64,000 bases of DNA from Nitrospirales bacterium (GTDB lineage: Bacteria; Nitrospirota; Nitrospiria; Nitrospirales; UBA8639). The DNA is taken from assembly GCA_965223765.1 (NCBI GenBank), contig OZ245016.1, positions 594,654 through 658,653 on the forward strand, written 5' to 3'. Below the pieces are notes generated by a model. It ran no database searches. It was not told where the DNA came from and saw nothing but the letters and a program-made list of their open reading frames with translations. Below, piece by piece: positions 6,180-36,766 of this stretch (position 1 is its first letter; the number at the start of each line of letters is the position of its first letter). The translations under genes and the position numbers were made by a program.

Positions 6180-6580
6180 CTGGCCTGCCCGCCCTTGCTT
6201 TTTCCAGTTGGCTCGTCTTCTCTTCTGTTCAGATTTCCAACCCAGCTCTTAGTTCTCTGCCACCCGAACCTGATGAAACTAGCCGGATCGATGAAATCTA
6301 CGACCAAGAATCCCGCCTATTTCTGTCTCTCTACTCCTTGAAAGGTAATGGAGAAGTCGACTACATCACGGGGCGTACCGTAGAAGGACATATCCGAAGT
6401 TCCTATGGGAATCCCGTCTACTATCTTCCTGAACACCCGATCTTCTATTGGTGGAACCACACCATGTGGAACGATCCCTTGTTAGATGGCGTCAATGGCA
6501 ATGAATTAGTGTATCAAGAAGATACTGAATTCGATGTGAGCCGCTACAAACCCTGCCTCTTCAATGGACAACCGTGTTAG
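6176..6580 (+). CDS. exported hypothetical protein
   Basis: ATGA overlap with the cytochrome gene, hydrophobic N-terminus. Confidence 0.65.
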   Translation: MTGLPALAFSSWLVFSSVQISNPALSSLPPEPDETSRIDEIYDQESRLFLSLYSLKGNGEVDYITGRTVEGHIRSSYGNPVYYLPEHPIFYWWNHTMWNDPLLDGVNGNELVYQEDTEFDVSRYKPCLFNGQPC

Positions 6581-6715
6581 AAGAAATCGTCTTCACTATT
6601 CTTGATCTGTCAGTAAACAACCCCCAGCTTTCCATATCAACAAAACCTAAAATAGGATTCTATGGAGAATAAACAACTGGAGAAAAAGGTTAGTGGAATT
6701 TTTGATCAATACAGA

Positions 6716-8341: not shown

Positions 8342-8373
8342 GGATTGGCAGGAATAGGTGATAGAAGAAAAAG

Positions 8374-9867: not shown

Positions 9868-9976
9868 AACGTCGCTGGTCTGTAGGCTCTAGACACGCGC
9901 ATGACGTCCAAGAGTGGTTCGAAAAGTCTGCGCTGAACAGAAGAGTCTCTATAAAAACATGGCCGCATCTTGATTC

Positions 9977-15189: not shown

Positions 15190-15194
15190 CTCAG

Positions 15195-15419
15195 TTAATC
15201 ACTAGTCAGAAATCTAGAAAAGAATATGGGAATGTTGAAAAAAGCCGCCAGCGGTGTTTTCTTGGTGAGCAACTCAGAAATCGTCTGCTCGATAATTTTG
15301 GATTTCTTGAGGATCTTATGGCTAATTTCTGCCAAGCTGCGTGTGGTAGATTTATACCGCTGTGCGGGAATGGTTAGAGCAGATTCACAATAGTCAGACT
15401 GGCGACCTAGCGTAGTCAT
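15195..15419 (-). CDS. possible small coupled ORF, 74 aa
   Basis: ATG overlaps the upstream TGA; stop is 5 nt before the next ATG, filling the operon gap; no recognisable motif. Confidence 0.35.
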   Translation of the reverse strand: MTTLGRQSDYCESALTIPAQRYKSTTRSLAEISHKILKKSKIIEQTISELLTKKTPLAAFFNIPIFFSRFLTSD

Positions 15420-18087: not shown

Positions 18088-18146
18088 AAACAGCTCAGGA
18101 ATGTTTGAGGGATTTCAGAAGGTTCTTTTGCCATAAGACATCTGAG

Positions 18147-20153: not shown

Positions 20154-20163
20154 CGAGTTACCC

Positions 20164-21540
20164 TTAATCTACCTTCGGGGCGTATTCGATGGGGGTGCCG
20201 GGTTGAGTGAGTGGAGAAGGAGCGCTGTCAGGTCGGCCGACGCCTTTTTGCCCCGCATGAGACTGGAAGAGACGAGCCAACCCTGAGATATTGGATCGGG
20301 AATCGAACATGTGAAGGACTTTTTTTCTTCCCGCTTTGGCTAATGTTGTTCGAAGTTCTGAGTCGGTTAAAAGTTCTTCTAATGCATCAGCTAAGGCTCG
20401 CGCGTTTTTCTGAGGGACTAACAGGCCGTCTTGTCGGTGTGTGATAAGTTCTGGAATACCTGATACATCAGTCGAGACGATGGGAATTCCACAGGCCATG
20501 GCTTCTGCCAAGACATTCGGAATTCCATCTCGATCCCCATTATCTAAAACATGACAGGCTAACGTGAAAATCGAGGCCTGTTGATAGATTTTGCCTAGTT
20601 GATCTTGCGTGACCCCCGGTTTCAGGGTGAGCGTGTTATCCAGATAAAGCCTGTGTCTTAAGCTTTTGATATGAGATGTCTCTTCATCGAACTCTCCTAA
20701 AATCACACTCTGAAAACGATGTCCCCGTTGTTGGAGGATTCCCAAAGCTTCAACGAGATAGGAAAACCCCTTTTTCTTCACGTGACGCCCAACTGATAGA
20801 ATCACGGGAACGTCGGAGGGGGGGACGGAGGCTGGCAGGAACCGCCCAGTATTGACCCCGTGATACACCCGATGCACTTTGCCTGCATCCTGAGGGAATA
20901 ATCTTTGAAGATGCTCATGGTTAAATCCTGTGCAGGTGGCGACGAAGGTGGTTCGTTGCATCTTGATCGATAACAGGTTCCCAGGGTTTAACTTTGGCAA
21001 ATAAATATCTTTTGCGTGGGCAGTAAAGCTAAAAGGAATACCTGTAAGGGAACTGGCAAACATCGCCATCGTCGTGGCGCCATGACAAAAATGTGCATGG
21101 AGGTGACGAATCGAAGGTGACTGGATTACCTTATTGGCGATAAACCCAGCTCGAAAAAATTCTTTGTACATAGCCTTTTTGGGTTCAAGACCCCAGGTAT
21201 GACGAAGAGAGAAACTAAGCCAGATGGCTTCCATCAACACTTTCACATACTGTAGAGGGCGCTGGGAGAAGAGATGAAGATGAGCCAGGTAATAACGCGG
21301 AACGTTGGCCTTCAGCCACGGCCAAAACGATGAATCAATAGCAGTCGGTTCCTCAGGTAAATACGTGACGGGGCTTTGGATATTGTTGGCCACGAGTGAT
21401 GTTGTGGTCTCCCTGGGAAAGGCTGAAAAAATTTTGAAACGAAATCCCAAGCGTTCAAGTTCATGAATTTCATTCGTGATAAAGGCTTCAGAGTTTCGAG
21501 GAAACCCTTTGAGGATGTAGGCAATAGTAGAGTGGCTCAT
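20164..21540 (-). CDS. GT4 glycosyltransferase
   Basis: FPRNSEAFI, HLHAHF, SFTAHAKDIY, DRDGIPNVLAEAMA. Confidence 0.9.
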   Translation of the reverse strand: MSHSTIAYILKGFPRNSEAFITNEIHELERLGFRFKIFSAFPRETTTSLVANNIQSPVTYLPEEPTAIDSSFWPWLKANVPRYYLAHLHLFSQRPLQYVKVLMEAIWLSFSLRHTWGLEPKKAMYKEFFRAGFIANKVIQSPSIRHLHAHFCHGATTMAMFASSLTGIPFSFTAHAKDIYLPKLNPGNLLSIKMQRTTFVATCTGFNHEHLQRLFPQDAGKVHRVYHGVNTGRFLPASVPPSDVPVILSVGRHVKKKGFSYLVEALGILQQRGHRFQSVILGEFDEETSHIKSLRHRLYLDNTLTLKPGVTQDQLGKIYQQASIFTLACHVLDNGDRDGIPNVLAEAMACGIPIVSTDVSGIPELITHRQDGLLVPQKNARALADALEELLTDSELRTTLAKAGRKKVLHMFDSRSNISGLARLFQSHAGQKGVGRPDSAPSPLTQPGTPIEYAPKVD

Positions 21541-22736
21541 GGTAGTACGACTTGGTAATGCTCAGATGTTGATTGTTTTTCTTGAGCATCAGATGTGATT
21601 TGCTTGAAAAGATTGTGAATCACACCAATGTTCTTGGATACACAAAAATCCTCTTCCACGGTTCTTCTTGCCGCGGTGCCTAATCGTTTTCGATGCTTAG
21701 GGTTTTGGAGTAGCATTTTTAACACTTCAGCCAATGTTTCCGGTTCACCGGGCAGAGTCAAAATCCCATCGTGGCCATCATGGATGAGCTCAGGAATGCT
21801 GGCGATAGCCGTAGAAACGACTGGGAGACCCATCGCCATGGCTTCGACAAGGACATTGGGGATGCCATCACGGTCACCATCTTCGGCAATTTGACAAGGC
21901 AAGACGAAGACGGAGGTCTTCTGATACCAGTCGATAATGCCATTCTGCGGCATTTTCCCCAGGAGGCGAACACAATCACTGATGTCAAATTGGTGAATCA
22001 TCTGTTTCAGGCTCTGTTCGAGCGGGCCATAGCCCACCAGCACACATTGGAAGTGGCACCCAGCTCTTTTTAGTGAGGCACAGGCTTGAATGAGAACAGG
22101 GAACCCTTTTTTGGGACGGAACCGTCCGATGCTCAGAATTAGCGGGCGCGTTTCATCTCTACCAAAAATTTCTTGGGAGTTAGTATGGAACACATTCAGA
22201 TCCACCCCGTGGTAGACCCGATAAATTGGTATATCGGAATGGACGCATTCTTCCAGATAATTTTTGTTGTACTCGGTACAGGTCAGAACGAACTGTGCTC
22301 TAGTCACCTTACGCGATAAATCTTCCTTAGATGAAAGGAAGAGATCTTTGGCATGGGTGGTAAAGCTATAAGAGATTCCGGTGAGGGTATGTACCTGTAG
22401 GGCTACGTCGGTGGGTTCGGAGACATAATGAGCATGAAGATGTGTGATGCCATATTCATGAACCTTTTCAGTGACCCATTCGGTCCACAAGAATTGTTGG
22501 ATGACGTTCCCCTTTCCTCCATTGAATACAACAGGTCCATACAATACTGGAGCCTTGAGTTGACGAATATGTGGGTGTGTCTCTGTGTCAGAGGGGGGGC
22601 GTAAAGAGAGGACGACAAGATTCAGCCCGAGACGTTCTAGTTCCAGTATTTCTTGAAGAATAAATGTCTCCGACAGTTTCGGAAAAATCTTGACGAGATA
22701 CCCAATCGTTGGTACCGCGTTTGATGTAGATGACAT
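21537..22736 (-). CDS. GT4 glycosyltransferase
   Basis: FPKLSETFI, HLHAHY, SFTTHAKD, DRDGIPNVLVEAMA. Confidence 0.9.
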   Translation of the reverse strand: MSSTSNAVPTIGYLVKIFPKLSETFILQEILELERLGLNLVVLSLRPPSDTETHPHIRQLKAPVLYGPVVFNGGKGNVIQQFLWTEWVTEKVHEYGITHLHAHYVSEPTDVALQVHTLTGISYSFTTHAKDLFLSSKEDLSRKVTRAQFVLTCTEYNKNYLEECVHSDIPIYRVYHGVDLNVFHTNSQEIFGRDETRPLILSIGRFRPKKGFPVLIQACASLKRAGCHFQCVLVGYGPLEQSLKQMIHQFDISDCVRLLGKMPQNGIIDWYQKTSVFVLPCQIAEDGDRDGIPNVLVEAMAMGLPVVSTAIASIPELIHDGHDGILTLPGEPETLAEVLKMLLQNPKHRKRLGTAARRTVEEDFCVSKNIGVIHNLFKQITSDAQEKQSTSEHYQVVLP

Positions 22737-22759
22737 ATGAATCTGACTGCCTCATGCGA

Positions 22760-24082
22760 TCATGCGGGTTGTAGCAAGGCATGATGGAAGGGTTCTATAG
22801 GGTAATGTCTCTTTTGACTATCGGAACGAGCATGACCCCAGCTTCCATTCATTAATAAATTCAGGATAGCCATAGTAAGGGTGGGTAAGGCATTGAGGTT
22901 TACAGCAGGTCCAGGGGTTAGGTTTCTTAGATCGTGGGGTTGGCATAAAAGACCTTCTAATTTTTCACAGAAAGAATCTGGGTTGAGTTTGTCTGGATGA
23001 ATCGCTTGGAACCACCCTAATTTCGCCATGCGCTGGGCACGTATCCATTGTTCTTCAACGGGGCGCGTTCTTGGAATTACTAATGCTGGTTTGCGTAAGG
23101 AGAGTAATTCACAAATGGTTCCATACCCACCCATGGATACGGCTACATCTGCGGCATCTAGGTAACTCATCACATCATCGGAAAAAGTCAGTGTCCTGAG
23201 GGAAGGCCATTGAGAGGCTTGAAGCTCTAATTCAAGACGAGTGGCTTCGGGCATTTCTGGACCGAAAATCAGAGTGCTGTACACTCGCTTGTGTTGAGAT
23301 ATGCGTGGCATGCTTGCCAGGTATTGTTGAAAAAGCTGCACACCATCTTCCCCCCCTCCGGCAGTGACGAGCACCATTTGATCATCTGCCGTCAGGCCTA
23401 ATTTCTTTCTCATATGTTCTCGGGTATGTTGTCCTGACTCTCGACGGAGATATCCACAATATTGGGTTTTGAGTTGAAGCGCTGGCGGGAACTGATATTC
23501 TGAACAGGCTTTGAACACTTCTGGAGAGCCTAGTACAAAAATACGATCGTAATGGGCTTCGAGCGCTTGAAAGTATTTCTGCTTTTTCCAGATGGCTCGT
23601 GTTACCTGTGGACTATCCAGAATGTCACGCAACAAAAGTGTGACGATGGTTTCAGGATGATAGGTTTTTAAATGGGCTAACGCTGGCTCCAATTCATTCT
23701 CGACCCCATAGGGTTTTTTGTCGACGATGACCATGTCAGGTTGAAAATTTACTAATGCGGCGAGAATGAGCTCAGTTCGGAGTTTGACGATGTCCCGCGT
23801 ATGTTCCTTCAGATATTTTGGGCCATAGCCATTGCATTTTGTTCGGGAAAGACAGGGCAATTTAATATAGTCAACACCCTCTGGGATGCGAAAACTATGC
23901 ACCATTGGAGAACCAGAAATGATCAAAATGGACAGGTCGGGAATCGACTTCATGAGAAATTGGCAAATAGAGAGGGTTCGACGAATGTTTCCCAACCCAA
24001 AGGTATCGTGGGAATAAAAGACTACCCGCTTAGTGTTCGCATTGACCATGTCTTTGAATTTTTTGAGTGAATGGAGTTTCAT
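22760..24082 (-). CDS. GT-B glycosyltransferase (GT28-like), first gene of the glycan operon
   Basis: YSHDTFGLGNIRR, YIKLP, LRDILD, VTAGGGEDG, SMGGYGT, EQWIRA. Confidence 0.85.
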   Translation of the reverse strand: MKLHSLKKFKDMVNANTKRVVFYSHDTFGLGNIRRTLSICQFLMKSIPDLSILIISGSPMVHSFRIPEGVDYIKLPCLSRTKCNGYGPKYLKEHTRDIVKLRTELILAALVNFQPDMVIVDKKPYGVENELEPALAHLKTYHPETIVTLLLRDILDSPQVTRAIWKKQKYFQALEAHYDRIFVLGSPEVFKACSEYQFPPALQLKTQYCGYLRRESGQHTREHMRKKLGLTADDQMVLVTAGGGEDGVQLFQQYLASMPRISQHKRVYSTLIFGPEMPEATRLELELQASQWPSLRTLTFSDDVMSYLDAADVAVSMGGYGTICELLSLRKPALVIPRTRPVEEQWIRAQRMAKLGWFQAIHPDKLNPDSFCEKLEGLLCQPHDLRNLTPGPAVNLNALPTLTMAILNLLMNGSWGHARSDSQKRHYPIEPFHHALLQPA

Positions 24083-24107: not shown

Positions 24108-24136
24108 TTAGACGACCCAACGAAGGAATAGTAAAC
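24108..24136 (-). promoter_or_regulatory. putative ECF sigma promoter of the glycan operon
   Basis: minus strand GTTTAC-N16-CGTCTAA, about 26 nt before ATG 24082; its TAA is also the stop codon of the upstream receiver gene. Confidence 0.72.
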
Positions 24137-25002: not shown

Positions 25003-25680
25003 CTAAGTTTCTACCATCGAAATTTTATAGCCGACGTCTCGCACTGTCTGAATGAGCTTCCGTGAAAACCCTTTGTCTATTTTATTACGCAAATAGCGAA
25101 TGTAGACATCCACGACATTAGTGGGCGTGTCGTAGTGGTATCCCCACACTTGTTCCAAAATCATCGTTCGGCTTAGGGGACGATTGGGGTGGGACATCAG
25201 ATATTCCAGTAAGGCAAATTCTTTGGCCGTCAGTGTAATGGGTAGTCCAGCTCGCGTGACTTCGTGTGTTTCTTTATTGAGGCAAAGGTCTTGAATATTG
25301 AGGGTGGTTGGAATGTCTTGATAATTGCCACGGCGGAGGAGTGCTTGGATCCTGGCCAGTAACTCTTCAAACGCAAAGGGCTTGGTTAAATAATCATCCG
25401 CTCCGGTTTGCAAACCTTCCACTTTATCCTGGAGCCCATCTCGTGCTGTCAGCATTAAGATGGGAGTATGAATCTTGTCTTTTCGTAAGATTCGACAAAT
25501 TTCCGTGCCATTCATCCCTGGGAGAAGAAGATCAAGAATAATCAGGGTATACGGATTTCTTCCATACTCCAGGCCTTCTTCTCCGTTGAGTGCGACATCC
25601 ACATGATATCCTTCGGCTTCTAGACCTCGTTTGACAAAACTGACAATGCGTTGGTCATCATCTACGAGGAGAAGATCCAT
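25003..25680 (-). CDS. OmpR-family response regulator
   Basis: REC domain (IILDLLLP, GADDYLTKPF) plus winged helix (LTAKEFALLEYL, NVVDVYIRYLR, IQTVRDVGY). Confidence 0.93.
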   Translation of the reverse strand: MDLLLVDDDQRIVSFVKRGLEAEGYHVDVALNGEEGLEYGRNPYTLIILDLLLPGMNGTEICRILRKDKIHTPILMLTARDGLQDKVEGLQTGADDYLTKPFAFEELLARIQALLRRGNYQDIPTTLNIQDLCLNKETHEVTRAGLPITLTAKEFALLEYLMSHPNRPLSRTMILEQVWGYHYDTPTNVVDVYIRYLRNKIDKGFSRKLIQTVRDVGYKISMVET

Positions 25681-25732: not shown

Positions 25733-25761
25733 TTAGACGGATGAACTTGGGAAAAGTAAAT
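25733..25761 (-). promoter_or_regulatory. putative ECF sigma promoter
   Basis: minus strand ATTTAC-N16-CGTCTAA, 53 nt upstream of ATG 25680. Confidence 0.65.
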
Positions 25762-25875: not shown

Positions 25876-26544
25876 TCACTCAGAAATCTTATAACCGATG
25901 TCACGAACCGTCTGGATCAGTTTTGGCGAAAAACCTTTATCTATCTTGTTCCGTAGATAGCGGATATACACATCGACGACATTGGTGAGTGGATCATGGT
26001 GTTGCCCCCACACCTGTTCAATAATCATGGTTCGGCTTAAGGGGCGGTTAGGACGAGACATGAGGTATTCCAACAACGCAAATTCTTTGGCCGTCAGTGA
26101 GATGGATTGTCGTCCTCTAGTGACCTCGCGGGTTTCTTTGTTTAAACACAGGTCGCCCACTTCGAGGACTGCGGATGTCTCTTGGTAGGTGCCTCGTCGG
26201 ATAAGAGCCTGGATTCGGGCTAGCAATTCTTCGAAGGCAAAAGGCTTCGTTAAATAATCGTCAGCACCAGTTTGAAGACCTTCAATCTTATCTTGAAGCG
26301 CATCTCGCGCCGTGAGCATTAAAATTGGGGTACGGATACCTTCTTGCCTTAGCGTCTGGCAAATTTCCTTTCCTGTAAGATCGGGTAAAAATATATCTAG
26401 AAGAATGACCCCATAATTTCCTCTTCCCGACTCTAACCCTTGCGGTCCAGTATTCGCTGTATCGACTTGAAAGCCTTCGGCCTCTAAGCCCCGTTTGACG
26501 AACTGGGTAATACGTTCATCATCCTCGATGAGGAGTAGTCTCAT
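25876..26544 (-). CDS. OmpR-family response regulator, close paralog of 25003..25680
   Basis: same REC and winged-helix motifs; overlaps the histidine kinase 3' end. Confidence 0.93.
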   Translation of the reverse strand: MRLLLIEDDERITQFVKRGLEAEGFQVDTANTGPQGLESGRGNYGVILLDIFLPDLTGKEICQTLRQEGIRTPILMLTARDALQDKIEGLQTGADDYLTKPFAFEELLARIQALIRRGTYQETSAVLEVGDLCLNKETREVTRGRQSISLTAKEFALLEYLMSRPNRPLSRTMIIEQVWGQHHDPLTNVVDVYIRYLRNKIDKGFSPKLIQTVRDIGYKISE

Positions 26545-28399
26545 GTAAGATCTCGTCAGCTACGGCTTGTTGGACAAAACGCAGGGTCACAGTAGTGCCT
26601 TTCTCTGGAAGACTGGAAAAACGAATTGTACCCCCATGAGCCTCAGTAATCCATTTGGCTATGGCTAAGCCCAGTCCGGCGCCAGGTTGGGTATGGTCTT
26701 TGATGCGATGCCCCCTGTAAAAGCGATCAAAAATATGAGGAAGGTCTTTTTCGGCAATACCTTGCCCTTGGTCCATGATCTCAATGGTCGTGTATCGGGA
26801 AACCGCGTTGAGACGTATCTGGATGTGACTATTGGAATCGGAATACTTGATCGCGTTATCCAGGAGAATGAGCAACAGTTGTTTCAACCGTTGAGGGTCA
26901 CCATAGATTCGGCTTGAGGCTAGAGGATCCATGAATGTGACTATGCTGTGTTTTTTCTGAGCCAGAATGGCGGCTTCCTGCAGCACGTCTTGTAAAAGAT
27001 TTTCGAGATCGACTTCCGTTTTGGTGATTTGAATCGTCCCGGTTTCTGAACGGGCGAGAAAGAGGAGATCACTCACTAGTTTATTCACTTCTTCTGTCAA
27101 TTGAACAATGCGTTCCAAGGAGGTTTTATAGTCCAGAATGGGTTTGTCTTTTCCCCTCAGAGTGACTTCGGCTTCTCCCCGAATGACGGTGAGGGGTGTG
27201 CGGAGTTCATGGCTGATGTCGGCAAAAAACTGTGACCGTAGTTGGTCGAGTTCTTTTAACCGGGCATTGGCTTTTTCCAATGCAGCCTGAGCCTTTTTCC
27301 GTTCTGTGATGTCCTGGGCCAAACAGGCAATGCCTTGAATGGTCCCATTGGTTTCCTTCATTGTGGCCGCCGAAATTAAAATGGGGACCAACGTTCCCAG
27401 TTTTGTCCGGTAACAGCTCTCGACATGGCCAAAACTGCCTTCTTTGAGCAATTGCCTCATCCGTTCTGGGGTCAAGAGATTCTGGGTGGGTGGGAATAGG
27501 ACTCCGATATGTTGGTTGATGAGTTCATCCCGTTGGTAGCCTAAGAGCTTCTCCGCCGAACGGTTCATTGATTGGATGATGCCCTCGTGATCCAAGACGA
27601 CTAAGCAGTCCAACATCGATCGTAAAATACTATCCAAGTATTCCTTTGAGACCGTGGTTTGATAAAGTCGTTCTGTCATTTGGTTGAAACCAGTGGCCAA
27701 TTTCCCTAACTCGTCAGTTGCATGAACTGGTACGGATACATCCAGTTGGCCTGAGGCCACTTGTTGAATAGCGCTTGTAAGGGGCTCAATAATTTTGAGA
27801 GATTGGCGGAGTAGAAGGACTAAAATGCTTCCTCCGAATAACGTCGTGAGACCATTGATCACAAGGGTTTGTTGGAGAAGATTCTTGAGTCGCTCTTCCA
27901 GTGGATTGCGATCAAGCAGAATTCGTATCCATCCAATAAATAGTTGGGAATCTTGTGGACCAGGAATATCAGGATGAGAGTCAGGGCTTCGACGAATCAC
28001 CACGTTGATGAATTGGGATATTGATGCACCCTCATGGAGCATGGTGTCTTGCTGAAAGACCGGGGCCATACTGGGTAATTCAATCTCTGATTCAGTCAAT
28101 TCCACGATAGAAGATTCAATCCAGAGGGATTGAGAAGCGTCGTATGCGAGAACAGCTAACACCCCTTCTGCCTCTCCGAGAGATTGTAAGAGTGAGGTAA
28201 ATCCTTCAACGTCTTGTGTGTGATAATAGATTCTTGATTCAGAGGCGATCGCTTTGGCCAGTTCTCGCCCACGGATATGGAATTCCTCGAACATGGCCTC
28301 TCGCGTGGCCTGATAGGTGAAATAAGTCAAAACGCCGATGGCACCGATTAAGATAATCAGCGCGATAGCCAATAGTTTTTGCCACAAGCGAAAATGCAT
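26519..28399 (-). CDS. sensor histidine kinase (2 TM, periplasmic domain, HAMP, PAS, HisKA, HATPase)
   Basis: DELGKLATGFNQM, ADISHELRTPL, LLDNAIKYS, DQGQGI, GAGLGLAI. Confidence 0.93.
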   Translation of the reverse strand: MHFRLWQKLLAIALIILIGAIGVLTYFTYQATREAMFEEFHIRGRELAKAIASESRIYYHTQDVEGFTSLLQSLGEAEGVLAVLAYDASQSLWIESSIVELTESEIELPSMAPVFQQDTMLHEGASISQFINVVIRRSPDSHPDIPGPQDSQLFIGWIRILLDRNPLEERLKNLLQQTLVINGLTTLFGGSILVLLLRQSLKIIEPLTSAIQQVASGQLDVSVPVHATDELGKLATGFNQMTERLYQTTVSKEYLDSILRSMLDCLVVLDHEGIIQSMNRSAEKLLGYQRDELINQHIGVLFPPTQNLLTPERMRQLLKEGSFGHVESCYRTKLGTLVPILISAATMKETNGTIQGIACLAQDITERKKAQAALEKANARLKELDQLRSQFFADISHELRTPLTVIRGEAEVTLRGKDKPILDYKTSLERIVQLTEEVNKLVSDLLFLARSETGTIQITKTEVDLENLLQDVLQEAAILAQKKHSIVTFMDPLASSRIYGDPQRLKQLLLILLDNAIKYSDSNSHIQIRLNAVSRYTTIEIMDQGQGIAEKDLPHIFDRFYRGHRIKDHTQPGAGLGLAIAKWITEAHGGTIRFSSLPEKGTTVTLRFVQQAVADEILHETTPHRG

Positions 28400-28404
28400 G
28401 GGAA

Positions 28405-28845
28405 TTAGTCACCCTCCTCCTGGAGAATGAATACGACTTTGACGTTGTCATTAACCTTTGACAGACTTACGTACCCAATGGCCCCTTCAATGGCAGACAC
28501 AAAACGGATGACGGCTTCCTCGGATCGCTGGATGAGACTTTGGACGGCTACCGGAGTTCCCTGTCTGAAAAATTGTTGGTTGGATTTGGCGTTGAGTACT
28601 TTCTCATAAAATACGCCTCGAACAGGGGAGGCAATCTCCCGGTTGACCAATTTGATTCGACCCCCATCTGACCAATGGAGTTCCTCTCCCCGATACATCG
28701 CGGCAATGTTCGTTTTTGTCAGAGACGTGACTGGATTGTTGTTGTTCACGATGACGGCTAAAGATTCCGCCTGGGCTAACGAACCGCTCCATAAGCTGAT
28801 TGCTAGGATCCAACTCATAAACCGGTAGAGGTGTTTGCAAGGCAT
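28405..28845 (-). CDS. small periplasmic binding-protein-like protein (phosphate-SBP-like family)
   Basis: signal peptide; AVIVNNNNPV..LTK...W.DG..I.L; V..FV....GAIGYV. Confidence 0.72.
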   Translation of the reverse strand: MPCKHLYRFMSWILAISLWSGSLAQAESLAVIVNNNNPVTSLTKTNIAAMYRGEELHWSDGGRIKLVNREIASPVRGVFYEKVLNAKSNQQFFRQGTPVAVQSLIQRSEEAVIRFVSAIEGAIGYVSLSKVNDNVKVVFILQEEGD

Positions 28846-28863
28846 GTGTAACCAGATAGATGT

Positions 28864-30147
28864 TTAAAACAACCAGGCGATTGACGCGATGAAGCCATTC
28901 CAGTTCTTTCGCTCAATGCCGCCGTTATTGATTTGGTATTCAGTTTTGAGGACGTAGTTTTCTATAGGGCGATAATTTAAGCCTGCGGTAAATCGATCTT
29001 CCGTCAAATTGCCACTGCCTGCCTTCGTTGTAATGCGAGCATGGTCATATCGGCCGACAAGCGTGAACGTGGGGTGAGTATAGGGTTCTCCCAAAAAAGT
29101 CTGATCCAAAAAACGCGGCCAGAAGTGATAATTGACTTGGACATAATATCCATATAACCGAGAAGGGGTTCGGGATCCTTGGATGTCAAAATGCGCGAAC
29201 TCTCCCTTGAATTCAAAGTCTTCCCAGAACGGGACACCTCGAGGTTTCAATTCCAAATCCACGTCAAAACCAGTGATCGTTTTTCCATTCCTGGGGCTTG
29301 AGGCTCCACGATATCCACTCACCCCTATTTCATATTGATCAGCAAGCTTTACAGTGGCTCGCCCGACCACAGCTTTTTGTCCATTGTTATCTCGGGTCAA
29401 CGGAGATCTGGCATCTTGAAGGCCGCCGTTAGTGGGAGAAAATTGATCAGTCAGTCCATTAATCACTGCGACTTCATAGGTGCTCACTATATTGGAAGAC
29501 CAAGGGACAAGGCCGAAGAGACTTGCTCCCAAATCCCCCCATGTTGTGGGAACAATTTGGCGGGCAACCAGTGGTCGATCGGTCAAGTCGCGTCTGGGAT
29601 CAAAATGGTCTAAATTAAATTTTCCAAACGGGACCAACACAACCCCTCCCCGTAAATTGATCCATTTGGCGATAAGCAGATCAACGTAGGCTTGTTCCGC
29701 ATGAACTTCTCCTTCAGGAATGCCGAGATCAATTTCATTATAAAAACGAATGCGGTCATGAATTTGTCCAGCAATGAGGACTTCGAGTTTGCCTTCGAAA
29801 GAGGTTTTTGCTCCGGCGAACGTTTCGAATTCAACAGCTCCATATCCTCCGAGGATAACCCGTTGGGAAATGTCATCCAGAATGGAGTTTTGTTGCATTT
29901 CAAGGGCCTCCACGCGGTCCTTCAGGGCTTGAATGTCCTGTTCATACACGTCTTCTTTTTTCACCATTTGAGACTGAGCGGCATCGGAGGTTTGTTCTTG
30001 GGCACCAAATCCCCAGGATGGGCTCAGCATGATTCCCAATACGGTTACACAGAGCCACAAACGAATGTATGGGTTTCGGACGAACCTTGATGGGGATGAA
30101 TTTGCGATATGAGATTGATGGTCGAGTAAAACGTTAAGACATACCAT
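28864..30147 (-). CDS. outer-membrane porin with N-terminal coiled coil
   Basis: EQAYVD, PFGKFN, DRPLV, PTTW.DLG, AGLNYRP, terminal AWLF; ATG 30147 overlaps the upstream TAA. Confidence 0.75.
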   Translation of the reverse strand: MVCLNVLLDHQSHIANSSPSRFVRNPYIRLWLCVTVLGIMLSPSWGFGAQEQTSDAAQSQMVKKEDVYEQDIQALKDRVEALEMQQNSILDDISQRVILGGYGAVEFETFAGAKTSFEGKLEVLIAGQIHDRIRFYNEIDLGIPEGEVHAEQAYVDLLIAKWINLRGGVVLVPFGKFNLDHFDPRRDLTDRPLVARQIVPTTWGDLGASLFGLVPWSSNIVSTYEVAVINGLTDQFSPTNGGLQDARSPLTRDNNGQKAVVGRATVKLADQYEIGVSGYRGASSPRNGKTITGFDVDLELKPRGVPFWEDFEFKGEFAHFDIQGSRTPSRLYGYYVQVNYHFWPRFLDQTFLGEPYTHPTFTLVGRYDHARITTKAGSGNLTEDRFTAGLNYRPIENYVLKTEYQINNGGIERKNWNGFIASIAWLF

Positions 30148-30800
30148 TAGGAAGACCTCTTGAAAATTGGAGCGATGATCCAATGTGGGAAATGATGAGT
30201 GGAATGAGAGGAGGGGGCAAATAGGTGTTGGCCATGCCGAGGAGAAAATTTCCAATGATGAGTTGGTGGACGCGTTTGATTGGCCGGACTATCAAAGTCG
30301 GGTTGTTGAAGTTCTTGAATAATGAGATGAAGCTCATTCTGATGAATAAAACAGAATCCCTTGGTGTAGAGATCGCTAGTTTGTTCATTACGTGCTCTGA
30401 AAGCGATAACTTCTTCAGGAAGAGCTTGCCTAAAAGCTTTAGGGAGTTCCGAGGCCAGAAGACTTAATTGATATTCTGTAAAGGTGGAATGTTGGTTCCC
30501 CATATGGGAGGAAAACAGTTCGCTTTGGCGATAATAAATATTATGTAAAAGCTCTCGAAGTTGAGTGGTCTCAAGATCAGCAGGGTGGGAAAGATTGGTG
30601 ACGATGGGATACCCGCTTGGCCATTCCTGAAGATCAACCCATTCGGTCTCGGTTTGGTATATGGACAGATGAACCGGTGAGCCACAGGAGACGAGAAACA
30701 TGAGAGTGAGGCATATGCTCACCACAAAGACGGAACGAACAATTTTGGTGTAAGGGGGCCGGGAAAGATGGGCTTTAATGTTGTGCGCGGAGACTAGCAT
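30147..30800 (-). CDS. putative lipoprotein
   Basis: lipobox-like FLVSC after a hydrophobic stretch; head of the porin-SBP-HK-RR operon. Confidence 0.6.
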   Translation of the reverse strand: MLVSAHNIKAHLSRPPYTKIVRSVFVVSICLTLMFLVSCGSPVHLSIYQTETEWVDLQEWPSGYPIVTNLSHPADLETTQLRELLHNIYYRQSELFSSHMGNQHSTFTEYQLSLLASELPKAFRQALPEEVIAFRARNEQTSDLYTKGFCFIHQNELHLIIQELQQPDFDSPANQTRPPTHHWKFSPRHGQHLFAPSSHSTHHFPHWIIAPIFKRSS

Positions 30801-31126: not shown

Positions 31127-31159
31127 TTTGACAAAGCCCAGAGAGTGGGCTTTGTCAAA
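31127..31159. terminator. hairpin, likely terminator
   Basis: TTTGACAAAGCCCA-5nt-TGGGCTTTGTCAAA perfect 14-bp stem overlapping the stop of 31155..31616. Confidence 0.7.
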
Positions 31160-31616
31160 TGCCTTGCCGACCTTCACGCCGGTCGTCCCGTCGTCCAAGG
31201 CTTCGATGCTCTCTTCGATCTTCTCGTCTGCCCAATCGTCGGTCTTCGCGTCGATCGGCTCGTCGGTCTAGTTGGCGATCTTCACGTCGGTCGTTTCGTC
31301 TATCGAGTCTCCGATCTTGTTGCCTGTCCTCTCGTCGATCCATTCTCTGGTCTCCGCGTCGCCCTTCTCGTCTTGTGAGACGGCGATCTTCTCGTTTATC
31401 GGCTTGTCGCATGCGGTTATCCTCATAGCGACGTGATGCACGAGAATAGTCTGAGTAACCAACACCTGACCCTGTGTCCGTCGAACCACGCCTTGAGTCC
31501 ACCGACCCCTTGCCTGAATTAAGGGACCCAGGTCCGGAATTACCCTCATGAGCGATAGCTGCTGTGCCTAAGAGCATGAGGAACGAGGTAGTGAGTATGA
31601 TGATCTTTGGTGTCAT
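31155..31616 (-). CDS. exported low-complexity Arg/Asp repeat protein
   Basis: GGAGG RBS, signal peptide, NSGPGSLNSG linker, then about 80 aa of (RREDRRxD)n. Confidence 0.7.
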   Translation of the reverse strand: MTPKIIILTTSFLMLLGTAAIAHEGNSGPGSLNSGKGSVDSRRGSTDTGSGVGYSDYSRASRRYEDNRMRQADKREDRRLTRREGRRGDQRMDRREDRQQDRRLDRRNDRREDRQLDRRADRREDRRLGRREDRREHRSLGRRDDRREGRQGI

Positions 31617-31753
31617 AAAACCTCCTTCTGGAATTATTGAGTAAAGCGATGTCATTGCAGCAGTCATGAATGTCTCTCGATACGCGAACTCGTCATTCCT
31701 AATCTGTGTGGGCTTTGTACTAGCTAAATCACCGATTCTTCCGTATTGTTTTA

Positions 31754-31783
31754 CTTAGACGACTGAAATGCGCACCCGTAAAC
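31754..31783 (-). promoter_or_regulatory. putative ECF sigma promoter (divergent)
   Basis: minus strand GTTTAC-N16-CGTCTAAG upstream of the repeat-protein gene. Confidence 0.7.
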
Positions 31784-31923: not shown

Positions 31924-31954
31924 GTTTACCGTTCAAGGTCATGACACGTCTAAT
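31924..31954 (+). promoter_or_regulatory. putative autoregulatory ECF sigma promoter
   Basis: GTTTAC-N17-CGTCTAAT, about 60 nt upstream of the sigma ATG. Confidence 0.72.
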
Positions 31955-32013: not shown

Positions 32014-32604
32014 ATGGATGACTCCTTGGAGAGTCAGAAGGAAGCTCGGCTCATTGTTCGATGTCAGCAAGGCGATCAAGAAGCGATCAGTCTATTGATT
32101 GAGAGATATGGAGATCGTGTTGTCAACGTGATTGGTCGAATCATCGCCAATCCAACCGACGCGCATGACGTGGCTCAAGAGACGTTTGTCGCAGCGTTCA
32201 AGGCCATTGGCAACTTTCGAGCCGATAGCCGGTTTTCGACCTGGATTCATCGAATTGCGGTCAATAAAGCTAAGGACTACCTACGCGTGCAAGGCCGACG
32301 GCAACATAGAGAAGCACCGACCAGCGGCGACAAAGACGGACAGAACTCCGTCTTGGAAATTAGCGATGAACGAACACCAGAGCATGAAGCGTCAGAAAAG
32401 CAGATGGCTTATCATATGGAACAAGCCATTCAAGGATTGTCTCCGCTCTATCGAGAAGCATTCGTGCTCAAACATGTGGAAGGGATGGACTATGAGGAAA
32501 TGGTTGAGGTACTTGGAGTCGGAAAAGATGTCCTGAAAATGCGAGTCTATAAAGCCAGAATCAAACTATCTAAAGAGTTGATGTGGCTCAAGGAGGATGT
32601 ATGA
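32014..32604 (+). CDS. ECF RNA polymerase sigma factor
   Basis: DAHDVAQETFVAAF, FSTWIHRIAVN (region 2), LSPLYREAFVLKHVEGMDYEEM...RVYKAR (region 4). Confidence 0.92.
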   Translation: MDDSLESQKEARLIVRCQQGDQEAISLLIERYGDRVVNVIGRIIANPTDAHDVAQETFVAAFKAIGNFRADSRFSTWIHRIAVNKAKDYLRVQGRRQHREAPTSGDKDGQNSVLEISDERTPEHEASEKQMAYHMEQAIQGLSPLYREAFVLKHVEGMDYEEMVEVLGVGKDVLKMRVYKARIKLSKELMWLKEDV

Positions 32605-33338
32605 CCATGGGACAGCATTTAGATATCCACGACGATGAGGAAGAGTTGAACGATCGAGATTGGTTGGTTCAACGCTTTGTCGATCAAGATCTCTTACCAC
32701 AAGAACGGATCGAATTTTTACGGGAGATGGATCGTGATCCAATCTTGCGTCGACAGGTGTTGGCAACTGAGCAGATACTGTTGCAGGCCACTCAACTACC
32801 TCGAACGACAGCATCGGTTGGATTGAAGGAGCAGGTCTTACAACAGCTGCTTTCTTCCAACAAGACTAACAGGAAATGGTGGGAATCAGCATGGTCGATG
32901 TTGTTTGCACCCCGTGTATTGGAATGGAATCCAGCAATCGCCTTGACTGCGGCATGCTTGCTGGTTGGCGTGCTCTGGATGATCAAGCCGTCGACAATTC
33001 CCGATGACCCCACCGTCACACCCCCTACAGCTTTCGTCAAGACTCGTGAGTCAGGGGATGCTCAGAGCCTAGTCATGGTTCGACTCGTTTTATTAGCACC
33101 CCAAGCCCAATCAGTGGCTGTGGCAGGAGATTTTAATGGCTGGAAGCCTGAAGAAACTCCCTTGCAACCTACAGAAGGTGGAGCCTGGACGGTGACGTTA
33201 CAGGTTCATCCGGGCCGATATCACTACATGTTTGTTGTCGATGATGAGTCTTGGGTCACTGATCCCTTTGCAGGTGAATATAGTGCTGACGGGTTTGGGG
33301 CCAAAAATGCGATCTTGGATGTCTCTCATGTTCTTTAA
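32601..33338 (+). CDS. putative anti-sigma factor with a C-terminal glycogen-binding (CBM48/AMPK-beta E-set) domain
   Basis: ATGA overlap with sigma; cytoplasmic N-terminus, one TM, then APQAQSVAVAGDFNGW...GRYHYMFVVD..WVTDP...DGFGAKN. Confidence 0.85.
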   Translation: MTMGQHLDIHDDEEELNDRDWLVQRFVDQDLLPQERIEFLREMDRDPILRRQVLATEQILLQATQLPRTTASVGLKEQVLQQLLSSNKTNRKWWESAWSMLFAPRVLEWNPAIALTAACLLVGVLWMIKPSTIPDDPTVTPPTAFVKTRESGDAQSLVMVRLVLLAPQAQSVAVAGDFNGWKPEETPLQPTEGGAWTVTLQVHPGRYHYMFVVDDESWVTDPFAGEYSADGFGAKNAILDVSHVL

Positions 33339-33388
33339 ATGCCATCCCACTTGCAGGAGAGGAAGCTGTTGGATACTCTCTGGAAGAT

Positions 33389-33769
33389 ATGAGGTGCTTC
33401 CGGGGATTAGGGTTACGGTTTGGTTGCTTCATGGTTGCAGGAGTAGCCTGCGGGTTGTTCAACGCTTGCGGGTCTTTTCCGTCTGTTCCTCTTACTCCTT
33501 ATCAAGTCAATGGAGGTGTGGAGTTTTCTCTGGTTGTCTCCGATGCTGAATCGGTAGCGGTCGTAGGAAATTTTAATGGGTGGTCACATACGGCCCATCC
33601 ATTGGCTCAAGTAGAAGAGGACTTCTGGTCGGGAACGGTGCCATTATCTCGTGGTGAGCATGTATTTATGTTTGTGGTGAACGACGAGGAATGGGTGGTT
33701 CCCCCGCTGGCGGATGACTATGTTGATGATGGATTTGGACAGAAAAATGGCGTTGTCGTCGTGCCGTAG
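33389..33769 (+). CDS. stand-alone glycogen-binding (E-set/CBM48-like) lipoprotein
   Basis: lipobox-like FNAC; AESVAVVGNFNGW, GEHVFMFVVND.EWV.PP, DDGFGQKN. Confidence 0.82.
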   Translation: MRCFRGLGLRFGCFMVAGVACGLFNACGSFPSVPLTPYQVNGGVEFSLVVSDAESVAVVGNFNGWSHTAHPLAQVEEDFWSGTVPLSRGEHVFMFVVNDEEWVVPPLADDYVDDGFGQKNGVVVVP

Positions 33770-33778
33770 CCATGCAAG

Positions 33779-34771
33779 GTGAAGCGCAGACCATTAGATG
33801 ATCAAAAAATTATGCGTAGACTGAAAACCTTTGCAATCGGATTCGTGAGTCTCGTGGCGATCATTCTGCCATATGTCAGTCACGCTGCGTCGTTACCTGC
33901 TCAAGACGTGCAGGACATTAATATGTTAGGGCAGACAAGAGGCCATGCGCCAGAATCCATCAACCGTCTTCTAGACCATGCCAAGCGAGCACTTGACCAA
34001 GGGCTACCAGAACGGCCTGTGGTGAATAAGATAAAGGAAGGTCTGGCGAAGGGGGCCCCGCCGGAACGCATACGGCCGGTCATTCGAGATATGGTCGATC
34101 GTCTTCGTAAGGCTCGAGATATGCTACGGGAGATGGCACCAGAGAGATCGAGAAAAAGCAGCCCAGAGGGTTCACGAGCAACTGAGGTGATGGCAGAAGC
34201 TTTGGGGCGGGGAGTGACCATTGACGAAATACGGTCTCTCAATCGTTCCAGAGGAAAAGGGGCGGTGAGTCGTGAAGCTTTGGCTTTTGGTGCAAAAGGG
34301 TTAGCTCTAACGAAAGAAGGTGGCTTAAAAGCTCCTGAAACGCTTCCGGTCGTTGGGGAAGCCATTCGGCAAGGGTTTCGAGCCAATGAATTGCTCGATC
34401 TTGGTAGGGAAATGAAAAAGCGTGGAAAAGAGTTTCGGACAGACCGCAACCGACTGCGAGATCTTAAGAGAGCGGTAGAGCGGGGAGAACGCGCAGAAAA
34501 AATCTTCGAGCGAGACCGGCGATCCAGTTCAGGACGAGGTCGGGGTGGAGAGCGGTTGTCCAGAGAGGATCGTGATACATCAAAAAATCCGGATCACGAT
34601 CGAACCCGCCGCGATGACCGATCTGGAAAAGGCAGAGGTCGTGATCGCATCGAATCTCGAGAGCGAATCGATCGGGGGCGAGACTCTCGAGGAAGCTCTG
34701 ATGCTCAACGGGATAGCCGAGATCAAGGACGGGACTCGAGTGGGCGAGGGCGAGGCGGGCGAGATGATTAG
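33779..34771 (+). CDS. exported hypothetical protein, helical core with R/D/G-rich disordered tail
   Basis: signal peptide; GLPERPVVNKIKEGLAKGAP; C-terminal RDRD/SSGRGRGG repeats. Confidence 0.7.
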   Translation: MKRRPLDDQKIMRRLKTFAIGFVSLVAIILPYVSHAASLPAQDVQDINMLGQTRGHAPESINRLLDHAKRALDQGLPERPVVNKIKEGLAKGAPPERIRPVIRDMVDRLRKARDMLREMAPERSRKSSPEGSRATEVMAEALGRGVTIDEIRSLNRSRGKGAVSREALAFGAKGLALTKEGGLKAPETLPVVGEAIRQGFRANELLDLGREMKKRGKEFRTDRNRLRDLKRAVERGERAEKIFERDRRSSSGRGRGGERLSREDRDTSKNPDHDRTRRDDRSGKGRGRDRIESRERIDRGRDSRGSSDAQRDSRDQGRDSSGRGRGGRDD

Positions 34772-34774
34772 GGC

Positions 34775-35719
34775 TTAGAATCGGAATCGGATTCCGCCTG
34801 AGAAACCAAAATCTGCCGCACTTTTCGAGAGTCCGACAAAGCCACCTACATTCATTCCAATCGCGCGAGTTATGCGGTAACGAATATCGCCATAGACATC
34901 TCTTGCGTGAGGAATGCCTTTCACGACAGCTCGATATTCTTCATAAAATACACTCGTGCGTAATTTGTCGGTCAGGTAATATCCCAGACCCACATCGTAA
35001 TTCCATTGGTTTCGAAAATTCCGGCCCTTGGGGTCGCCAAGAATAGTATAGCCTCCATCTAGATACAAAATAAGGTCTCGGGTTAAGGCCTTAGCGGCCT
35101 CGCCACCAAACCCATAGTCAAATTCGCCAGTCCCTAAACCCTTATCTTCGTCGGCCGTCGGGAATTTTACTCGACCGGTGAGGTTCACCGATGGAATCCA
35201 ATCTTGTTCATCGATGAGATAGTAGCGCGTAGCAAGTGTAATATCTCCTAATCCACTCTCTGTTTGCTTGTCTCTTTTTGTGGTTGTGGTGATAGGACCG
35301 GAATCGTCATCATCAACTTCGTCATCATCGGATGGTCCGCTACTGCCGGAGCCACTGTTGCTACTTCCCGGTCCACTGTTATCGCTGCCGGAACCACTGT
35401 TACTCCCCCCGCCGCCACTTCGGTCACCACCAATAAAGGTCACGGAGCCATCACTGGTAATCCGGACATAGGGAACCGTAACCGACAGTTCTCCAAAACT
35501 GAATAAGCGTTTGATAGCGAAAGGGACATAGGTCACCGTAGTCGTCGTGTCGGTTCCATAATCACCTCGGCTATAGGAAGGATTGACTGAGATCTGCCAG
35601 TTTTGTGCACTCTCTTCAGCAAGGAGACGGGGTGGGAACAACAGAATGGGTATCAATAGTAGACAGTACAACCCTCCAGCCCAAGCCAAAAAAGTCCTAT
35701 CAGAACTTCTATAGCGCAT
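34775..35719 (-). CDS. outer-membrane beta-barrel 'transporter'-like protein with a G/S/D-rich insertion
   Basis: AAGGAG RBS; YSRGDYG, SGLGDITL, KFPTADEDKGLGTGEFD, terminal FRF; internal GGGSNSGSGSDNSGPGSSNSG...DDDE. Confidence 0.75.
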   Translation of the reverse strand: MRYRSSDRTFLAWAGGLYCLLLIPILLFPPRLLAEESAQNWQISVNPSYSRGDYGTDTTTTVTYVPFAIKRLFSFGELSVTVPYVRITSDGSVTFIGGDRSGGGGSNSGSGSDNSGPGSSNSGSGSSGPSDDDEVDDDDSGPITTTTKRDKQTESGLGDITLATRYYLIDEQDWIPSVNLTGRVKFPTADEDKGLGTGEFDYGFGGEAAKALTRDLILYLDGGYTILGDPKGRNFRNQWNYDVGLGYYLTDKLRTSVFYEEYRAVVKGIPHARDVYGDIRYRITRAIGMNVGGFVGLSKSAADFGFSGGIRFRF

Positions 35720-35881
35720 AAACACTCGACTCCTTGTGGTGATTGGTATGATAGGTATTATTTGATCAGGCAGCAAGACAAGATCTAGAACTGTTATCGG
35801 TTTGACCATAAAGTCTTCATGGGGGCTTCGAGAAACAAGAAATATCGCTATGGAGTAGATAATTCAATTGGCTGTCTGCAT

Positions 35882-35910
35882 TTAGACATTCTAAAGATCC
35901 AATGGTAAAC
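35882..35910 (-). promoter_or_regulatory. putative ECF sigma promoter
   Basis: minus strand GTTTAC-N16-TGTCTAA upstream of the beta-barrel gene. Confidence 0.65.
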
Positions 35911-36094: not shown

Positions 36095-36766
36095 ATGGAG
36101 ATGGTCATCATGTCTGATGAATACACATACGAAGAGTTACAGAAACTCGTTGATACGTTAACGGAAAGGGTTGAGAAAGCTGAGAAGTTTTGCCGAAGTT
36201 TCTTTGAAAATAGCCATTCCATTATGGTCATTATTCACCCAGAGACCGGAAAGCTTCTCGACGCCAATAGGACAGCCTGCGAATACTATGGCTATACCAA
36301 ACGGGAACTCACGAATATGAAGATCATGGAGATCAACATGCTTCCTCAAGACCAAGTATTTGAGAAAATGCAGGAAGCTCAAAGAGGGCAACAGAAGCAT
36401 TTTATCTTTCGCCATAGACTGTCGAGCGGAGAAATAAAAGATGTTGAAGTCTTTAGTGGACCGATTACCAAAGATGGTGAAGAAGTGTTGTATTCCATTA
36501 TCCATGATATTTCTGAACGGAAAACACACGAACGAGAGAGAGAACACCTCATTACGAAACTTGAGCAAGCCCTTGCTGAAATAACGACCCTACGAGGGAT
36601 CCTACCTATCTGTGCAACTTGCAAAAAGATTCGGGACGACAAAGGCTATTGGAGTCAAATCGAAACGTATATTCGGACTCATTCAGAAGTAGAGTTTACT
36701 CATGGGATTTGCCCGGAATGCGAAGGAAAAAGTTACTCAAGCTTAAATAAATCTGGTGGTAACTGA
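36095..36766 (+). CDS. PAS-domain protein with Cys/His-rich C-terminal tail
   Basis: PAS (DANRTACEYYGY); LPICATCKKIRDDKGYW...FTHGICPEC. Confidence 0.85.
   Translation: MEMVIMSDEYTYEELQKLVDTLTERVEKAEKFCRSFFENSHSIMVIIHPETGKLLDANRTACEYYGYTKRELTNMKIMEINMLPQDQVFEKMQEAQRGQQKHFIFRHRLSSGEIKDVEVFSGPITKDGEEVLYSIIHDISERKTHEREREHLITKLEQALAEITTLRGILPICATCKKIRDDKGYWSQIETYIRTHSEVEFTHGICPECEGKSYSSLNKSGGN

Follow-up and report, generated by a model that had tools for sequence, protein, structure and literature searches.

A conserved Nitrospirota module of an AlgU/RpoE-like ECF sigma factor, a predicted CBM48-bearing anti-sigma factor and a paralogous CBM48 lipoprotein, with a putative envelope regulon

Systems built on sigma factors of the extracytoplasmic function (ECF) type are largely defined by what the anti-sigma factor senses, and few of their receptor domains have known ligands. 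This question is raised directly by a locus in a 64,000-nucleotide stretch of DNA from a Nitrospirales bacterium (contig OZ245016.1 of assembly GCA_965223765.1, positions 594,654 to 658,653 of the forward strand), hereafter called the window, in whose numbering features are given unless another locus or contig is named. Here, a gene for an ECF sigma factor is followed by one for a predicted membrane-bound anti-sigma factor ending in a domain of carbohydrate-binding module family 48 (CBM48), and then by one for a small predicted lipoprotein carrying the same domain alone. What could such a receptor detect in the periplasm, what might its free copy do beside it, and which genes does the sigma factor control? 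The locus is useful here for its sensor with a recognizable ligand platform, a free paralogous copy of that sensor, and a small, mostly local putative regulon that can be read from the sequence.

A first-pass annotation of the window had placed the sigma factor, a CBM48-bearing anti-sigma factor and a separate CBM48 protein at this locus, and all three elements were confirmed; it had covered neither a fourth conserved gene (33779-34771) nor the regulon. Our overall reading, held with more confidence than doubt, is that the locus encodes an envelope-directed ECF switch of AlgU/RpoE-like type whose receptor is a CBM48 domain; it would be autoregulated, command a compact envelope regulon and have the lipoprotein and the product of the fourth gene, here called p330, as accessory modulators.

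A four-gene unit headed by an ECF sigma factor

The genes for the sigma factor, the anti-sigma factor, the CBM48 lipoprotein and p330 lie in this order in one compact unit at 32014-34771 (+). The first two overlap by 4 nt, and gaps of 50 nt and then 9 nt separate the others, while scans for sigma-70 promoters and terminators within the unit gave nothing above shuffled sequences; the four genes are predicted to form a single transcription unit. The ATG of the anti-sigma gene (32601) overlaps the sigma stop codon as ATGA, with AAGGAGG just 5' of the ATG, an arrangement in which the two genes are predicted to be translationally coupled.

The sigma factor (32014-32604, +; 196 aa) is AlgU/RpoE-like. 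It matches Sigma70_r2 (1.7e-19) and Sigma70_r4_2 (2.8e-10) in Pfam and reaches 98.7 bits against the ECF superfamily model TIGR02937, whose cut-off is 42.9; its 196 aa hold regions 2 and 4 only, and with the TIGR02937 score above cut-off it has the features that define ECF (group 4) sigma factors. The best specific model is that of RpoE, TIGR02939, with 147.7 bits against a cut-off of 236.15. By these scores the RpoE/AlgU equivalog is the closest family, and the sigma factor is not a member of it. Its closest solved relatives are 6in7_B, which we take to come from the AlgU-MucA complex, and 8z6g_B (both 2.5e-32), followed by E. coli RpoE 1or7 (3.5e-28).

A predicted single-pass anti-sigma factor with a CBM48 domain

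The anti-sigma factor (32601-33338, +; 245 aa) is predicted to consist of an anti-sigma domain (about 32628-32858), a single transmembrane helix (about 32931-32981), a disordered linker and a periplasmic CBM48 domain (about 33072-33320). Both CBM_48 (6.3e-12; 46.1 bits, gathering cut-off 22.4) and AMPK1_CBM (2e-11; 44.4 bits, cut-off 26.8) match residues ~166-248 of the 251-aa open reading frame (ORF) in Pfam. In an AlphaFold2 model built on 46 homologues, with a mean predicted local distance difference test score (pLDDT) of 82, residues 158-240 fold as a beta-sandwich with pLDDT above 93, preceded by four N-terminal helices (10-27, 33-45, 47-64 and 73-86), a transmembrane helix (111-127) and a disordered linker (133-152). 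The CBM48 sensor sits on a flexible linker of roughly 30 residues. A Foldseek comparison, which covered the CBM48 domain of the anti-sigma factor only, ranked the carbohydrate-binding modules of AMPK beta1 and beta2 best (probability 1.00; target-normalized TM-score 0.70-0.82), with the CBM48 domains of SEX4 and of branching enzyme (GlgB) below them at the same probability. Pfam scores above the gathering thresholds, the predicted fold and the Foldseek ranking thus bear out the earlier suggestion that a transmembrane anti-sigma factor ends here in a CBM48 domain.

The N-terminal part was assigned from its family profile, which matches the anti-sigma domain of RsiW (5wuq_C, E 4.4e-4); the NF052375 'antisigma' model gives a weak match. 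In an alignment of 46 sequences the zinc motif H-x3-C-x2-C is absent, with no Cys or His at those positions, and a signature QRF-x-D-x-x-L-x-x-x-ER is conserved. The protein is best classed, by profile and predicted topology, as a single-pass anti-sigma factor of the class I anti-sigma domain type that lacks the zinc motif, and it is predicted to inhibit the sigma factor. Four Lys/Arg residues precede the transmembrane helix, and one Lys and two Asp follow it. Because the N-terminal domain is of a cytoplasmic anti-sigma type and the charges are distributed in this way around the helix, we infer that the CBM48 domain faces the periplasm, as the first-pass annotation had also supposed. Databases label homologues of this protein 'isoamylase early set domain-containing protein', apart from a few that JGI names RsiW or RskA, and this public annotation hides the regulatory role proposed here.

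A CBM48 lipoprotein and a helical-repeat protein downstream

The next gene (33389-33769, +) codes for a 126-aa protein that matches CBM_48 (1.1e-8, 35.7 bits) and AMPK1_CBM (2.3e-7, 31.4 bits) in Pfam, and its family profile matches the AMPK beta2 carbohydrate-binding module at 8.6e-11. Its domain shares about 41-44% identity over ~82 aa with the sensor domain of the anti-sigma factor, and the two are paralogues. Cys27, which closes a hydrophobic segment at the N-terminus, is invariant: 10 of 10 orthologues have it, preceded by Ala or Gly (position -1). Most orthologues have canonical lipoboxes (LLAAC, LLSAC, LLGAC, ISGC), and that of the window itself, FNAC, is non-canonical at -3/-2. Since the lipobox Cys is invariant and the boxes of the orthologues are mostly of textbook form, the protein is predicted to be a lipoprotein that carries its CBM48 domain on a tether of roughly 15 residues. 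This agrees with the earlier description of the gene as the same domain alone behind a lipobox-like signal, for which the Pfam matches and the conserved Cys now provide support. The residue after the lipobox Cys (+2) is never Asp among the orthologues, and under the sorting rule of E. coli a residue other than Asp at +2 favors delivery to the outer membrane.

The fourth gene (33779-34771, +), recognized through synteny and an AlphaFold2 model, codes for p330, which is predicted to be secreted and to consist of helical repeats followed by a disordered tail in which Arg, Asp and Gly abound. Translation probably starts at the ATG at 33812, and the protein has a Sec-type signal peptide. Residues 41-251 are modeled as all-helical with pLDDT mostly 90-98, a loop around residue 125 excepted; in the tail pLDDT falls below 50. 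No match to p330 was found in Pfam, in NCBIfam or among Protein Data Bank (PDB) sequences, nor was a fold relative found in the PDB, where the best hits were designed helical repeats with TM-scores of about 0.2-0.25. The gene lies 3' of the module everywhere, including the distant loci L004-L007, L039 and L040. Its core contains the conserved motif GLP-x-RP-x-x-(N/D)-(K/R)-I-x-x-GL(A/S)KG-x-x-P-x-RI, and the composition of its tail differs between lineages: Nitrospirales have the Arg/Asp/Gly-rich form, while in Thermodesulfovibrio-type genomes the tail is Met/Gly-rich, with GMGGG repeats that end in H-R.

Distribution and gene order of the module

Almost all of the 159 database homologues of the anti-sigma factor come from Nitrospira or other Nitrospirota. 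In our phylum sample of 151 Nitrospirota genomes, about 25 encode a full-length anti-sigma factor, and nearly all of these also have a small CBM48 paralogue within ~1 kb of it, so the pairing of anti-sigma factor and lipoprotein is not due to chance. The order of the genes is permuted between lineages: it is sigma, anti-sigma, lipoprotein, p330 in Nitrospirales (L001-L003, L008, L037, L038 and genome G044), and lipoprotein, sigma, anti-sigma, p330 in the Thermodesulfovibrio-type loci (L004-L007, L039, L040). Outside the phylum the pair of sigma factor and CBM48 anti-sigma factor was found sporadically, in a metagenome-assembled genome (MAG) of Anaeromyxobacteraceae (L009) and in an unclassified MAG (L026).

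A gene for an outer-membrane beta-barrel stands beside the module in both clades. The barrel that follows the module in the distant loci shows no detectable homology to that of the window (E 0.099), so we call the two only analogous. In L039 (genome G131) the barrel gene is followed by lgt (5911-6702, -), coding for prolipoprotein diacylglyceryl transferase (6.2e-82), which may be a coincidence, though a striking one beside a sensor module that includes a lipoprotein.

The CBM48 subtype is also found outside anti-sigma factors. It was detected in 600 metagenome clusters at <=1e-30; among the 150 best of these, about 40 belong to the full-length anti-sigma type. Clusters P0241-P0389 contain it in tandem, with 3-18 copies to a protein and protein lengths of 300-6200 aa, and a class of ~480 aa with four copies is common among them.

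A putative promoter motif and its regulon

ECF promoters characteristically combine a -35 element ending in AC, a spacer of 16-17 nt and a -10 element with CGTC. A bipartite motif of this shape, GTTTAC-N16/17-CGTCTAA, was tested here, with one-mismatch variants counted apart. It occurs exactly three times in the window, where shuffled sequences lead one to expect none, and with up to one mismatch there are 5 sites against about 0.02 expected. The 3.79-Mb genome as a whole has 4 exact matches and 8 with one mismatch allowed. Six of these eight are placed as promoters, 25-128 nt 5' of a gene and on the correct strand, and they are the only intergenic ones; the other two, at C1:1375014 and C1:2571997, were rejected as promoters, being located inside long ORFs and probably due to chance. 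The second of these (C1:2571997-2572025, -; one mismatch) falls within a ~990-aa ORF resembling a trehalose/maltooligosaccharide enzyme.

The putative promoter of the module itself is an exact match with a 17-nt spacer (31924-31953, +), 60 nt before the sigma ATG, and a motif at this place is conserved in L001, L002, L003, L008 and L037. Divergent from it, a match with a 16-nt spacer (31755-31783, -), conserved in L001-L003, lies 87 nt before the ATG of a gene (31155-31667, -) for a 170-aa periplasmic protein with a signal peptide and RREDRR-type Arg/Asp repeats, whose orthologue adjoins the module in L001-L003, L008 and L037 (in the last, from Nitrospira G104, at 7422-8051). Convergent with the module is the gene for the outer-membrane beta-barrel (34775-35809, -; Phenol_MetA_deg, PF13557, 8e-10), orthologues of which adjoin it in L001-L003, L008, L037, L038 and G044; 72 nt before this gene stands a variant with one mismatch, GTTTAC-N16-TGTCTAA (35882-35910, -).

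Two more sites lie farther off in the window. The variant ATTTAC-N16-CGTCTAA (25733-25761, -) is placed 52 nt before a gene for an OmpR-type regulator (25003-25680); an ATTTAC-type motif also precedes the OmpR-like gene of G044, and the matches at C35:321494 (G151) and C148:35140 (G153) correspond to this site by location only. The presence of an ECF-type motif before the OmpR gene in both genomes suggests a cascade from the ECF sigma factor to a two-component system. The neighboring genes for a lipoprotein, a porin, a histidine kinase and OmpR form a unit (26519-30800, -) that is conserved in Nitrospira G044 (region 1-5087). An exact match with a 16-nt spacer (24108-24136, -) lies 25 nt before the first gene of a glycosyltransferase operon, and in L041, L042 and L043 the exact consensus recurs, with diverged spacers, 5' of the orthologue of this GT28-like gene.

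Outside the window, at C1:546360-546898 (-), the fourth exact match stands before the gene of a secreted protein of 379 aa, which has internal repeats but no Pfam match; 48 kb away, it alone among the putative regulon members is distant from the module. When a relaxed pattern was run on eight other genomes, it gave 27 matches, mostly clustered around the module, against 3 for a reversed control; in G104 the motif precedes genes for a DUF5666 lipoprotein and a beta-propeller protein. On account of these statistics and of its conservation, we take the motif as the putative promoter of the sigma regulon and infer that the sigma factor reads the GTTTAC-N16/17-CGTCTAA sites. If it does, then it would be autoregulated and would drive a compact, mostly local envelope regulon.

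A glycan synthesis and export operon in some genomes

The operon that follows the 24108-24136 site spans 17 kb (6716-24082, -) and is assigned to glycan synthesis and export from its Pfam and NCBIfam contents. It codes for a GT28-like glycosyltransferase, two EpsE-like GT4 glycosyltransferases, a heparinase II/III-like protein, four APH-type kinases, a fusion of a GT28-like domain with DUF2334, an MsbA-like ATP-binding cassette exporter and an AlgE-like porin, none of which reaches an equivalog cut-off in NCBIfam. Its signature GT28/DUF2334 gene is present in 5 of the 151 phylum genomes, all five of which carry the module. In G151-G153, G036 and G044 the operon is located within 8-22 kb of the module, and in G044 it abuts the module.

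From its position behind the motif, the operon appears to be a member of the regulon. With the operon in 5 of 151 genomes and the module in about 25, however, the module is older and broader than the glycan pathway; the pathway seems to have been added to the regulon of the module in particular lineages.

What the receptor may bind

If the two CBM48 domains bind sugar, the residues that would form the binding platform ought to be recognizable. In the 46-sequence alignment of the anti-sigma factor, W181, W218, N236 and F232 are invariant together with a DGFG-x-N loop, and in the 10 orthologues of the lipoprotein the same holds for W65, W102 and N120 with their DGFG-x-N loop. HMMER alignments map both Trp-Trp-Asn sets to the FNNW, GQW and TxNN loop of AMPK beta; the mapped residues are W100, W133 and N150 in AMPK beta1 numbering, which contact cyclodextrin in 1Z0M. 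The position aligned with Lys126 of AMPK beta is Met210 in the anti-sigma factor and Met or Leu in the lipoprotein, and Lys126 is needed for glycogen binding. The sequences thus keep the Trp-Trp-Asn platform but not this polar clamp. That the domains bind sugar is plausible on sequence grounds, with a specificity that may differ from glycogen.

The first-pass annotation had proposed that the system senses periplasmic glucan or the product of the cell's own pathway, and this proposal survives in part. For glucan, the platform is retained in both paralogues but the Lys126 position is not. Sensing of the cell's own product is a reasonable idea since a conserved putative promoter motif, found in three related genomes besides the window, precedes the glycan operon, but most genomes with the module lack that operon. 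We rejected the operon product as a universal ligand on the counts of 5 and about 25 genomes in 151; the triad is invariant in all 46 sequences while most module genomes are without the operon, so the product of the operon is not the general ligand.

Proposed mechanism and alternative explanations

If the module is an envelope switch with a CBM48 receptor, the CBM48 domain of the anti-sigma factor would bind a periplasmic saccharide through its Trp-Trp-Asn platform, and binding would alter the susceptibility of the anti-sigma factor to regulated proteolysis, as in RseA and MucA. Accessory modulation, in a role like that of RseB/MucB, would fall to the lipoprotein and p330, which would either share the ligand or make contact with the sensor domain. 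In genomes that have the glycan operon, a loop would be closed between the glycan status of the envelope and the production of glycan.

Several points weigh against this reading. Both the binding of the sigma factor by the anti-sigma factor and its proteolytic release are assumed by analogy, and by eye no promoter motif is shared 5' of the lipoprotein gene in L004-L007 and L039. About 20 of the 25 module genomes are without the glycan operon; G104 and G059 have the module and no GT28 homologue, and in G044 no ECF motif stands directly before the glycosyltransferase genes, only before the OmpR regulator. The Met or Leu in place of Lys126 counts here as well, as does the fact that CBM48-fold domains make protein contacts too, in AMPK, and also occur on enzymes that do not act on starch, such as feruloyl esterases (6rzn).

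The alternative that best survives takes up these last points and holds that the CBM48 domains are protein-protein modules, with the lipoprotein in the outer membrane and the anti-sigma factor in the inner membrane touching each other or p330, so that the switch would report on outer-membrane or lipoprotein-trafficking status, like RcsF-IgaA and NlpE-CpxA. What it fails to anticipate is that in both families the invariant positions coincide exactly with the sugar platform (two Trp, an Asn and the DGFG-x-N loop), as a pure protein interface would not be expected to keep this platform in two paralogues and two classes. Against this it can set the replacement of the canonical Lys in both CBM48 families, the conservation of the module in many genomes that lack the glycan operon, a lipobox whose +2 residue favors outer-membrane sorting, the continued adjacency of the paralogues despite the permutation of gene order, and the behavior of the AMPK beta module as a protein-contact module in the best-matching structures. 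We regard this explanation as possible, if rather unlikely.

Another possibility is that only the anti-sigma factor senses, while the lipoprotein and p330 are outputs of the regulon that handle a glycan of the envelope, for instance as tethers or chaperones of a polymer at the outer membrane, and are co-transcribed through the autoregulation of the operon. Their company would fit such a role, with the other putative regulon members being exported proteins of a structural or handling type (the Arg/Asp-repeat protein, the barrel, and the DUF5666 and beta-propeller proteins of G104) and the CBM48 subtype being common as arrays of 3-18 copies in large proteins other than anti-sigma factors. Yet in the Thermodesulfovibrio-type order the lipoprotein gene is 5' of the sigma gene and still joined to the pair, and the lipoprotein domain is closer to that of the anti-sigma factor than to other CBM48 domains, which suggests co-evolution with the sensor; we consider this second alternative quite improbable. 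That adjacency and motif are coincidental and the CBM48 matches generic early-set (E-set) beta-sandwiches with no signaling role, as the bare database label might lead one to think, is extremely improbable and was rejected, being contradicted by both Pfam scores above the gathering thresholds, a specific fold match, synteny conserved across classes and the enrichment of the motif (27 to 3 over the control, none expected in shuffles).

Returning to the envelope switch with a CBM48 receptor, a more specific version of it would be a glycan gauge that spans the periplasm. Here, the CBM48 domains of the anti-sigma factor and of the outer-membrane lipoprotein would bind the same saccharide, either of the envelope or an export intermediate, with p330 as a scaffold, and their occupancy would set the stability of the anti-sigma factor and feed back on the cascade of ECF sigma factor, OmpR regulator and glycan export. 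We offer this version tentatively and think it unlikely to hold as a whole; if true, it would make this system the first ECF switch in a diderm to sense a product or glycan with a carbohydrate-binding module as its receptor.

The Nitrospirota include the main nitrite oxidizers of wastewater plants and oceans, where aggregates and biofilm matter, and in some Nitrospirales the putative regulon takes in a complete, uncharacterized pathway for glycan synthesis and export. If the switch is tied to an envelope glycan, it would be a concrete handle on aggregate and biofilm behavior.

Other neighboring genes

Beyond the barrel gene lies a gene for a PAS protein (36095-36766, +) with a Cys-rich motif (ICATCKKIRDDKGYW...HGICPEC) at its end. 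The C-terminal part of this PAS protein is shared, with 41% identity over 105 aa, by a protein encoded just 5' of the module in a Thermodesulfovibrio MAG (L006, 4208-4789).

Comparison with known systems

A literature search returned no description of a CBM48-bearing anti-sigma factor or of this module, and the main text of the ECF re-classification paper does not mention the module. By its family matches, the system falls outside the RpoE equivalog, ZAS, RsgI and FecR families; for the FecI/FecR type, Pfam and NCBIfam gave neither a FecR nor a TonB-receptor family for the module and the genes flanking it.

A close parallel in overall layout is with the Pseudomonas system AlgU(AlgT)-MucA-MucB and the E. 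coli system RpoE-RseA-RseB-RseC, in which a sigma factor, a single-pass anti-sigma factor and periplasmic accessory proteins are likewise encoded in one operon. As in those systems, the sigma factor appears to be autoregulated and its putative regulon is directed at the envelope, and as with AlgU that regulon takes in a pathway for exopolysaccharide whose last component is an AlgE-type porin. The putative promoter differs, GTTTAC/CGTCTAA here as opposed to the GAACTT/TCTGA type of AlgU and RpoE. The periplasmic part of the anti-sigma factor is a CBM48 domain, unlike the C-terminal region of RseA and MucA, and the place of RseB/MucB is taken by a CBM48 lipoprotein and a novel helical protein; no RseA_N, RseA_C or RseB/MucB family was among the Pfam and NCBIfam matches of the downstream genes. 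From the RsiW type of class I anti-sigma factor, with which the present protein shares a profile match, four predicted N-terminal helices and a single-pass topology, it differs in lacking the H-x3-C-x2-C zinc motif.

In the clostridial SigI/RsgI systems, a membrane anti-sigma factor bears an extracytoplasmic module of carbohydrate-binding type and controls glycan-related genes (PMC6582324). The present anti-sigma factor resembles RsgI in its predicted membrane location, in bearing such a module and in its putative ties to glycan-related genes. The sigma factor, however, is of the ECF type with regions 2 and 4 only, unlike SigI, and no RsgI_N match was found in the anti-sigma factor with Pfam or NCBIfam. 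The host is a diderm, so that the sensor would be periplasmic and not at the cell surface, and the module belongs to family CBM48. The putative target is an operon for synthesis and export, not a set of degradative enzymes, and a stand-alone paralogous lipoprotein is present.

As for the receptor domain, it has the fold of the CBM48 domains of AMPK beta and SEX4 (TM-score up to 0.82, normalized to the carbohydrate-binding module) and keeps their Trp, Trp and Asn. It differs from them in its predicted extracytoplasmic location, where no glycogen is expected, in the change of Lys to Met or Leu, and in being carried by an anti-sigma factor or a free lipoprotein in place of an enzyme or kinase subunit. 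ECF sigma/anti-sigma signaling is thus the known part of this system, and the receptor domain, its free paralogue and the accessory protein are what is new.

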